Origin: a phage
Reading direction: 5' to 3' (one strand)
Sequence record: PQ826431.1
Length of the DNA stretch: 64,000 nucleotides
The position numbers and the translations under genes are program-made. The notes under the pieces are model-generated. The model saw nothing but the letters and a program-made list of their open reading frames with translations. It was not told the origin of the DNA and did no database searches. Shown piece after piece: positions 32,512-33,139 of the stretch. Position 1 is the first letter of the stretch. Each line of letters opens with the position of its first letter.

Positions 32512-32904
32512 ATGAATCTAAAGACTAAAACTGTATTAAGTTTTGTTTTAATTGTTGTTCTTATTCTTGCCGGAATGTTTGCTTATAACAAGATACGTGA
32601 GTCTGGCTACAAAGATGGTGTTGCCTATCAAACGCAAGTATATCAAGCAGCCCAAGCAAAAGCAAAACAAGATTTTGATGTTCTTCAAAAAAGAGCAGAT
32701 GAAGAAAGAGCATTATTAAATACTCAAATAAACAACTTGTCTAAAAACAATGCACAATTAAAAGCAGATTTAGAGAAGAAGAAACAAACGATCAATGAGG
32801 ATACAACGAATTATGCAAAAACTAATTCTGGCAGTATGTCTTGCTTTGCCCCTAATGATGACGGGTTGTTCATCATCAACAAAAGTTTCCCCAGTTCTTA
32901 TTGA
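32512..32904 (+). CDS. putative i-spanin (Rz-like): N-terminal TM helix plus periplasmic coiled coil
   Basis: 'TVLSFVLIVVLILAGMFAY' TM segment followed by heptad-rich 'QAAQAKAKQDFDVLQKRADEERALLNTQINNLSKNNAQLKADLEKKK'. Confidence 0.5.
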   Translation: MNLKTKTVLSFVLIVVLILAGMFAYNKIRESGYKDGVAYQTQVYQAAQAKAKQDFDVLQKRADEERALLNTQINNLSKNNAQLKADLEKKKQTINEDTTNYAKTNSGSMSCFAPNDDGLFIINKSFPSSY

Positions 32905-33139
32905 TGAGTGTAAGGCTGTAGCCATAGAAAAGGTTAAAGGTCCAGATTCGGACTTGATGGATAAAGTATCGACACCTGTGCCATACACTAAAAATCAAAT
33001 TGCAAAAGGGGCTAGTAGATCTGAAGTTGTTAACAACCAAACTCAAAACAATGCTCTTTGGGAGCAAGATAGACGAAAGGTTTTAGGTTTACAAACATAT
33101 ATTAAAACACTGCAAGAAAAAGGTATTATTGCTGAATAA
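32795..33139 (+). CDS. putative o-spanin (Rz1-like lipoprotein) overlapping the i-spanin gene out of frame
   Basis: 'MQKLILAVCLALPLMMTGCSSS' signal with lipobox-like LMMTG|C; starts inside 32512..32904 in a different frame and extends past it; alternative start ATG at 32813. Confidence 0.5.
   Translation: MRIQRIMQKLILAVCLALPLMMTGCSSSTKVSPVLIDECKAVAIEKVKGPDSDLMDKVSTPVPYTKNQIAKGASRSEVVNNQTQNNALWEQDRRKVLGLQTYIKTLQEKGIIAE

Follow-up and report, generated by a model that had tools for sequence, protein, structure and literature searches.

A putative overlapped two-component spanin encoded upstream of the terminase large subunit gene of a phAPEC8-like Escherichia coli myophage

The window, a 64,000-nucleotide stretch of phage DNA (sequence record PQ826431.1), carries two overlapping plus strand genes directly upstream of the terminase large subunit (TerL) gene, and this pair very probably constitutes a two-component spanin of the overlapped architecture in a phAPEC8-like (Phapecoctavirus) E. 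coli myophage. At the level of sequence, the pair has every feature by which an overlapped two-component spanin is recognized. The assignment is correct but ordinary, because the literature already lists the spanins of this phage group and GenBank records already annotate them. It confirms the standard picture of a two-component spanin, a soluble T4-type endolysin and dispersed lysis genes, and carries little weight beyond the quality of the annotation.

By sequence, the window is that of a phAPEC8-like E. coli myophage of the genus Phapecoctavirus. It is ~99.5% identical to many GenBank records. When a 3.5-kb segment around the spanin locus was used as query, 90 phage records matched, of which 63 covered at least 80% of the query. 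The best of these matches, at 99.3–99.7% identity, are Escherichia phages of this genus (subfamily Stephanstirmvirinae), which have genomes of ~150 kb. The comparisons given below were made with eight Stephanstirmvirinae phages: ESCO5, phiWec179, PsgM04F, Citrobacter phage Tr1, Klebsiella phage KP13-26, PaulScherrer, phi92, and Klebsiella phage 05F01. These eight plus the window are the nine genomes referred to throughout. The ESCO5 spanin locus is ~97% identical to that of the window, whereas the proteins of the other relatives show 39–55% (i-spanin) and 52–72% (o-spanin) amino acid identity. A cluster of 10 tRNA genes (29603..31645) lies just upstream of the spanin locus.

The gene pair and its products

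The i-spanin gene (32512..32904, plus strand) encodes a protein of 130 residues that is conserved in the relatives and matches the PHROG family phrog_4297 (‘Rz-like spanin’, E=3e-35). The protein has one strong hydrophobic segment, the Kyte-Doolittle maximum at residues 7–25 (about 7–26, encoded by 32530..32589), with a 19-residue mean of 2.57. This predicted transmembrane domain (TMD) is preceded by the basic N-terminus MNLKTK and is kept in all nine genomes, and the protein would adopt a type II topology (N-in, C-out). The AlphaFold2 single-sequence model is a continuous helix from residue 3 to residue 104 (mean pLDDT 82) followed by a disordered tail of 26 residues. Note that the modeled monomer is one unbroken helix rather than two coiled-coil segments joined by a hinge, and that weak coiled-coil matches were obtained in Pfam. 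The C-terminus carries the conserved motif YAKT..G.MSCF.P.DDGL.IINKSFP. The single Cys residue of the protein (Cys111) lies in the SCF of this motif and is invariant in the nine genomes.

The o-spanin gene (32813..33139, plus strand) encodes 108 residues when read from its conserved start, which is kept in the relatives, or 114 residues when read from an alternative upstream ATG at 32795 (32795..33139). The product begins with a putative signal peptide, MQKLILAVCLALPLMMTG, which is followed by the lipobox Cys and a mature part of 90 residues. The lipobox, M-T-G-C (32858..32869, with the Cys codon TGT at 32867..32869), was found by reading of the sequence and by a regular expression, and the match to the PROSITE PS51257-type pattern is CLALPLMMTG-C with Ser at position +2. 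The Gly-Cys pair is invariant in 9/9 genomes and the +2 residue is Ser, Ala, or Thr. As Ser rather than Asp occupies position +2, the protein lacks an inner membrane retention signal. A second Cys in the mature protein, within an E/Q-C-K motif, is likewise invariant in all nine genomes. The AlphaFold model of the o-spanin is of low confidence (59.6) except for a C-terminal helix (residues 69–102).

Records differ in the start codon chosen for the o-spanin gene, and this bears on the properties of the protein. The start M-(Q/R)-K located 18 residues before the Cys (32813) is common to all of the genomes examined, whereas an ATG equivalent to 32795 is found in some genomes only. The match to phrog_1267 (‘Rz-like spanin’, E=4e-21) also begins at the second Met, that at 32813. 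We therefore take 32813 as the most likely start, since it is conserved in every relative examined. In many GenBank and RefSeq records, including those of nieznany and iGC_PHA_EC001 and the curated PaulScherrer record, the coding sequence begins instead at the methionine of MMTGC (32855). In other records of this phage group, the o-spanin gene is absent from the annotation or is labeled ‘hypothetical’, and the RefSeq record of ESCO5 has the long form.

The two genes share 92 nt (32813..32904, plus strand; 110 nt if counted from 32795) that encode the C-terminal motif of the i-spanin in frame 0 and the signal peptide of the o-spanin in frame +1. The o-spanin gene then extends 235 nt past the i-spanin stop codon. 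In each of the eight relatives, the pair was found with the o-spanin gene in the +1 frame, an overlap of 92–95 nt, and the end of the o-spanin gene 8–10 nt before the TerL gene. The C-terminal motifs of both spanins are among the invariant features across the genomes. Across six divergent relatives, nucleotide identity to the window reached 0.81 in the overlap, compared with 0.55 in the segment coding only for the i-spanin and 0.65 in that coding only for the o-spanin. Third-codon positions of the i-spanin frame were invariant at 4% of the sites outside the overlap versus 55% of those inside it, where these positions are the second positions of the o-spanin codons. This pattern is clearly the signature expected when two frames are both under selection, and the arrangement is not a chance open reading frame (ORF).

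These data agree with most of what the initial annotation of this locus had proposed. The i-spanin-like ORF with a transmembrane helix plus coiled coil was borne out by the hydrophobic segment, the modeled helix, and the phrog_4297 match, and the out-of-frame lipoprotein ORF that starts within the i-spanin gene and extends beyond it was indeed found in the +1 frame, with its lipobox and its 235-nt extension. The position next to the terminase also held, as the TerL gene begins 10 nt downstream. Both ORFs were present at the coordinates given, on the plus strand, and for the second ORF the conserved start at 32813 is preferred to that at 32795.

Family assignment and alternative readings

The pair belongs to a family that has been described. 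In their survey of spanins, Kongari et al. (2018, BMC Bioinformatics 19:326, PMC6139136) place phi92 and phAPEC8 together as the two members of an ‘Overlapped’ family, in Table 3 as well as Table 4 and thus for both the i-spanin and the o-spanin, an assignment that was itself bioinformatic. By their criterion, members of a family share at least 40% identity across 40% or more of the periplasmic domain. The full-length identities to the phi92 proteins are 48.5% (i-spanin) and 64.8% (o-spanin), values above the family threshold. Moreover, the o-spanin is 99.1% identical to that of phAPEC8 itself and both proteins are 97–100% identical to those of sequenced phAPEC8-like phages. The RefSeq ESCO5 record (NC_047776.2) has coding sequences that are the exact equivalents of 32512..32904 and 32795..33139, named ‘Rz-like spanin’ and ‘o-spanin’, respectively. 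In the manually curated record of the BASEL phage PaulScherrer, genes named ‘i-spanin’ and ‘o-spanin’ immediately precede that of the ‘terminase large subunit’, and several other records are annotated alike. The family, the architecture, and the site before TerL are those of the phi92/phAPEC8 family and nothing material differs, the only variation being the choice of o-spanin start among records.

Searches of Pfam (E≤0.1) and NCBIfam with both ORFs gave no significant family match, including no match to lambda Rz (Phage_lysis) or Rz1. The NCBIfam model TIGR03495 (P2 LysB) scored 16.6 bits (E=0.007), which is below its cutoff of 92.75. By these results, the pair does not belong to the sequence families of lambda Rz/Rz1 or P2 LysB, although the functional class stands. 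Such a lack of membership is normal for spanins, of which there are well over 100 families unrelated to one another (PMC6139136).

The resemblance to lambda Rz/Rz1 is one of design. In both systems, a (predicted) type II inner membrane helical protein is paired with a (predicted) outer membrane lipoprotein encoded in the +1 frame, each with Cys residues on the periplasmic side that could form homotypic disulfides, and the mechanism is presumed to be the same. In contrast, lambda Rz1 is wholly embedded within Rz, whereas the o-spanin gene of the window runs well past the i-spanin stop codon, and the lambda mature o-spanin has 40 residues and is proline-rich, whereas that of the window is more than twice that length with few prolines and a predicted C-terminal helix. 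There is no detectable sequence homology to the lambda proteins, and unlike the lambda genes those of the window lie outside any holin-endolysin-spanin cassette. P2 LysB/LysC share the overlapped architecture, but the similarity to LysB is below threshold and the P2 genes lie within a lysis cassette. The T4 proteins PseT.3/PseT.2 are also from a large virulent myophage in which the spanin genes are unlinked to those of the endolysin (e) and holin (t), and the T4 o-spanin, also a relatively large protein, likewise has a helix predicted at its C-terminus (PMC6139136, Fig. 8 legend). However, the T4 genes are of the separated type, without the overlap, and their sequence family is a different one. 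In the rV5-like phage LL12, the genes encoding TerL (gp64), the o-spanin (gp65), and the i-spanin (gp66) are adjacent, the endolysin gene is elsewhere, and the holin was not identified (PMC6658697). Unlike the pair of the window, the spanins of rV5-like phages (Vequintavirinae) are classed as ‘separated’ and fall into different families in Tables 3 and 4 of Kongari et al. (PMC6139136).

The spanin role of the pair rests on sequence features, and two other readings were weighed. ORF2 could be a lipoprotein that serves a different purpose, for example to exclude superinfecting phages or to block a receptor (as with T5 Llp and Cor). ORF1 would then encode a membrane-anchored coiled-coil protein unrelated to it, and the overlap would be a matter of compact packing. 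The lack of a significant Pfam or NCBIfam match for ORF2 would allow such a role, as would the absence of an endolysin or holin gene adjoining the pair. However, we consider this very unlikely. In every relative examined, the TMD-helical protein and the lipoprotein are strictly paired with a fixed +1 overlap. Both partners carry the conserved C-terminal motifs and periplasmic Cys residues that are the spanin signature, and both PHROG families are spanin families. Moreover, a site in the late packaging and structural block suits lysis better than early exclusion, and in T4 and other large myophages it is normal for lysis genes to be dispersed (PMC6139136).

Alternatively, ORF1 could be the sole real gene, with ORF2 beginning at 32855 and thus lacking a signal peptide, in which case its product would not be an outer membrane lipoprotein. 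Several deposited annotations use this start (the nieznany, iGC_PHA_EC001, and PaulScherrer records among them), but mis-starts of this kind are a common gene-calling error for o-spanins (Kongari et al. 2018, PMC6139136), and RefSeq ESCO5 retains the long form. An ORF2 read from 32855 has neither a signal peptide nor a lipobox match. Over the 18 codons upstream, which encode M-Q/R-K and a hydrophobic stretch, the frame is open and the protein sequence conserved in each of the nine genomes, the o-spanin frame is under constraint within the overlap, and the PHROG profile aligned from the 32813 Met. We regard this reading as extremely unlikely and reject the 32855 start, because it loses the signal peptide while the codons upstream of it are conserved as protein and constrained. 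The two-component spanin is thus the preferred reading, and in practical terms the o-spanin gene should be annotated from 32813 (or 32795) rather than from 32855, which deletes the lipoprotein signal.

Endolysin, holin candidates, and the dispersal of lysis genes

The mechanism that we propose for the spanin pair is drawn by analogy with that of lambda Rz/Rz1, the paradigm reviewed in PMC6139136. The N-terminal helix of the i-spanin would anchor the protein in the inner membrane and its long α-helical domain would reach into the periplasm, whereas the o-spanin, once exported, would receive its lipid at the lipobox Cys and be delivered to the outer membrane. Both subunits probably form homodimers, each linked by a disulfide at the one conserved Cys of its periplasmic part. 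The C-terminal regions of the two proteins would bind one another, and the resulting complex would pass through the peptidoglycan meshwork and bridge the periplasm. Among spanins in general, single subunits can often not be exchanged between pairs. Upon release of the soluble T4-type endolysin by the holin, degradation of the cell wall would free the spanin complexes, which would then complete lysis by fusing the inner and outer membranes.

The endolysin gene (5145..5645) is on the minus strand, 27 kb from the spanin genes, which are on the opposite strand. Its product matches Pfam family PF00959 (43.4 bits, cutoff 22.3) and the T4 lysozyme of the PDB (E ~1e-47 over residues 7–165), and by our reading the positions of the T4 catalytic Glu, Asp, and Thr residues appear to be kept. 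The protein has no N-terminal TMD, SAR sequence, or other hydrophobic segment. It is thus expected to be soluble and should require a hole-forming holin. The gene is flanked by those for a PhoH-like ATPase and a glutaredoxin, and in PaulScherrer the homologous ‘endolysin’ gene has the same context. Among PDB entries, the endolysin is matched best by 7rgr (E=1e-71), an ‘Artificial protein L056’ whose first 71 residues are identical to those of the phage protein, and owing to this identity the 7rgr sequence appears to have been derived closely from the endolysin of this phage family.

The hydropathy analysis showed no TMD protein flanking either the endolysin or the spanin genes, and the arrangement of a classical lysis cassette, with holin and endolysin genes adjoining those of the spanins, is not found here. 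The lysis genes are likewise dispersed in PaulScherrer and in LL12 (PMC6658697), and those of T4 are also unlinked (PMC6139136). The initial annotation had anticipated this picture, in that a T4 e-like endolysin on the other strand 27 kb away, the lack of an obvious holin nearby, and the dispersal of the lysis genes were all upheld. It had also named three small membrane proteins as candidate holins. A hydropathy scan of all ORFs of the window of at least 40 residues recovered two of these, 20243..20434 and 58351..58593, as free-standing small membrane proteins, the former being on the minus strand. The third, 62339..62674, fell below the threshold and was not flagged.

The hydropathy scan together with the family matches identified no holin in the window, and the three candidates stay unconfirmed. 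The candidate at 58351..58593 (plus strand, 80 residues) is located in the tail and baseplate gene block and belongs to phrog_1322 (‘membrane protein’). It has two hydrophobic segments (one above the threshold and a second seen by eye) and a charged C-terminus. Its homologues were found in 372 phage records of the Stephanstirmvirinae and the rV5, PVP-SE1, and CR9 groups, and among 45 sampled rows the term ‘holin’ was given in none, the label always being ‘membrane protein’ or ‘hypothetical’.

The candidate at 62339..62674 (plus strand, 111 residues) has a hydrophobic N-terminal segment seen by eye, the rest of the protein being helical or coiled-coil. PHROG 15210 labels it ‘lipoprotein’, which it is not, because it contains no Cys at all. 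A weak similarity to the spanin family phrog_739 (E=0.0012) is probably compositional. The gene follows that of a tail-fiber chaperone homologue, and its PaulScherrer homologue (bas60_0034, ‘hypothetical’) also follows a tail-fiber chaperone gene. This site recalls that of T4 t, which follows gene 38. The product is a possible holin or antiholin.

The third candidate, at 20243..20434 (minus strand, 63 residues), has two predicted TMDs, is a member of phrog_19851 (unknown function), and lies in the early/middle region. Its locus is a mosaic that varies between close relatives. The protein is ~90% identical to its counterparts in a few Justusliebigvirus phages (muut, VEcB) and ~32% identical to most of those in Phapecoctavirus, whereas the rest of the window is ~99% Phapecoctavirus.

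Other ORFs were tried as holins and rejected. The small ORFs upstream of the spanin genes (32291..32461 and 32313..32528) encode hydrophilic proteins having no credible TMD. The ORF at 22750..23076 (minus strand), labeled ‘hol-like chemotaxis’ in ESCO5, encodes a soluble coiled-coil protein that lacks a TMD. One paper cites the ‘hol-like chemotaxis’ gene as lysis-related. The annotation of PaulScherrer, taken over all bases except 100001–100425, contains no holin, and in papers that mention both Phapecoctavirus and holin the mentions are automated labels only. The authors of the LL12 report stated that no holin could be identified (PMC6658697). That the holin of the rV5/phi92 supergroup is one of the proteins encoded by 58351..58593 and 62339..62674, two conserved small membrane proteins whose genes lie within the tail-gene block, is a tentative suggestion that we think is probably wrong. 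If true, the three lysis functions would all be spread out among genes of late morphogenesis, with the endolysin in a nucleotide-metabolism block. The identity of the holin is of practical use, as these phages are a widely used group of therapeutic candidates.

Expression context and the terminase gene

The TerL gene (33149..35224, plus strand) was assigned by its match to phrog_979 (E=1e-216), the Pfam family Terminase_6N, and the annotation of its relatives. Its GTG start codon follows the o-spanin stop codon by 10 nt and is preceded by an AAGGAGG Shine-Dalgarno sequence. Two terminator-like hairpins (32165–32177 and 32200–32221, within the plus strand segment 32165..32234; MFE −23.3 kcal/mol, z=−2.3) are found upstream, the second of which is followed by a U-tract. 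The ASO2A record gives ‘terminator (x2)’ under the match. These hairpins separate an ORF of 98 codons from a unit composed of the small ORF(s), the i-spanin, the o-spanin, and TerL. A terminator scan gave no plus strand terminator-like site between the spanin genes and TerL, and the spanin genes are probably co-transcribed with TerL. Since they are situated 10 nt upstream of TerL and downstream of the two hairpins, it is most likely that the spanin genes are expressed late, along with those for packaging and structure, and not as part of a lysis cassette. A sigma-70 scan around the locus gave five sites versus the 4.8 expected from shuffled sequence, and as this is no better than the shuffled sequence we claim no promoter.

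The 98-residue protein (31853..32149, plus strand), encoded between the tRNA cluster and the spanin genes, is acidic with a basic N-terminus (MPKLKRGRGRPT...), is conserved, and matches phrog_3330. Its gene has a strong Shine-Dalgarno sequence of its own and is followed by the two hairpins described above. It is conceivable that this protein is the small terminase. In the early/middle region, an ORF of 69 codons (18292..18501, minus strand) has an N-terminus resembling a signal peptide (MKKILTVVLLAFSFTVAAGQ...), which suggests that its product is a small secreted or periplasmic protein.

The TerL protein contains an insert of 159 residues (33275..33751) that splits the P-loop of the Walker A motif. 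The sequence reads ...MIYGGAAG up to the insert, which begins with CVSAETEYLTKDGW and ends with GDHCFVTGN, after which TerL resumes with SGKSRLLLLKAL. With the insert removed the P-loop reads GGAAGSGKS, and TerL is contiguous at this site in the Felixounavirus SLAM_phiST56 (GGAAGAGKT) and in Aeromonas phage phiA047 (GGAAGSGKSRLLLIKALKHAY). An intein-like block A (Cys1) can be recognized in the insert, as can a possible block B (SMEH), and the last residue is an Asn, with Ser as the next. From these motifs and from the relatives that lack it, the insert looks like a mini-intein. Comparison of the TerL N-terminal insert with Pfam and with PDB sequences gave no intein match. In public records, the gene is named simply ‘terminase large subunit’, and the 05F01 record gives ‘N-terminal endonuclease domain’.
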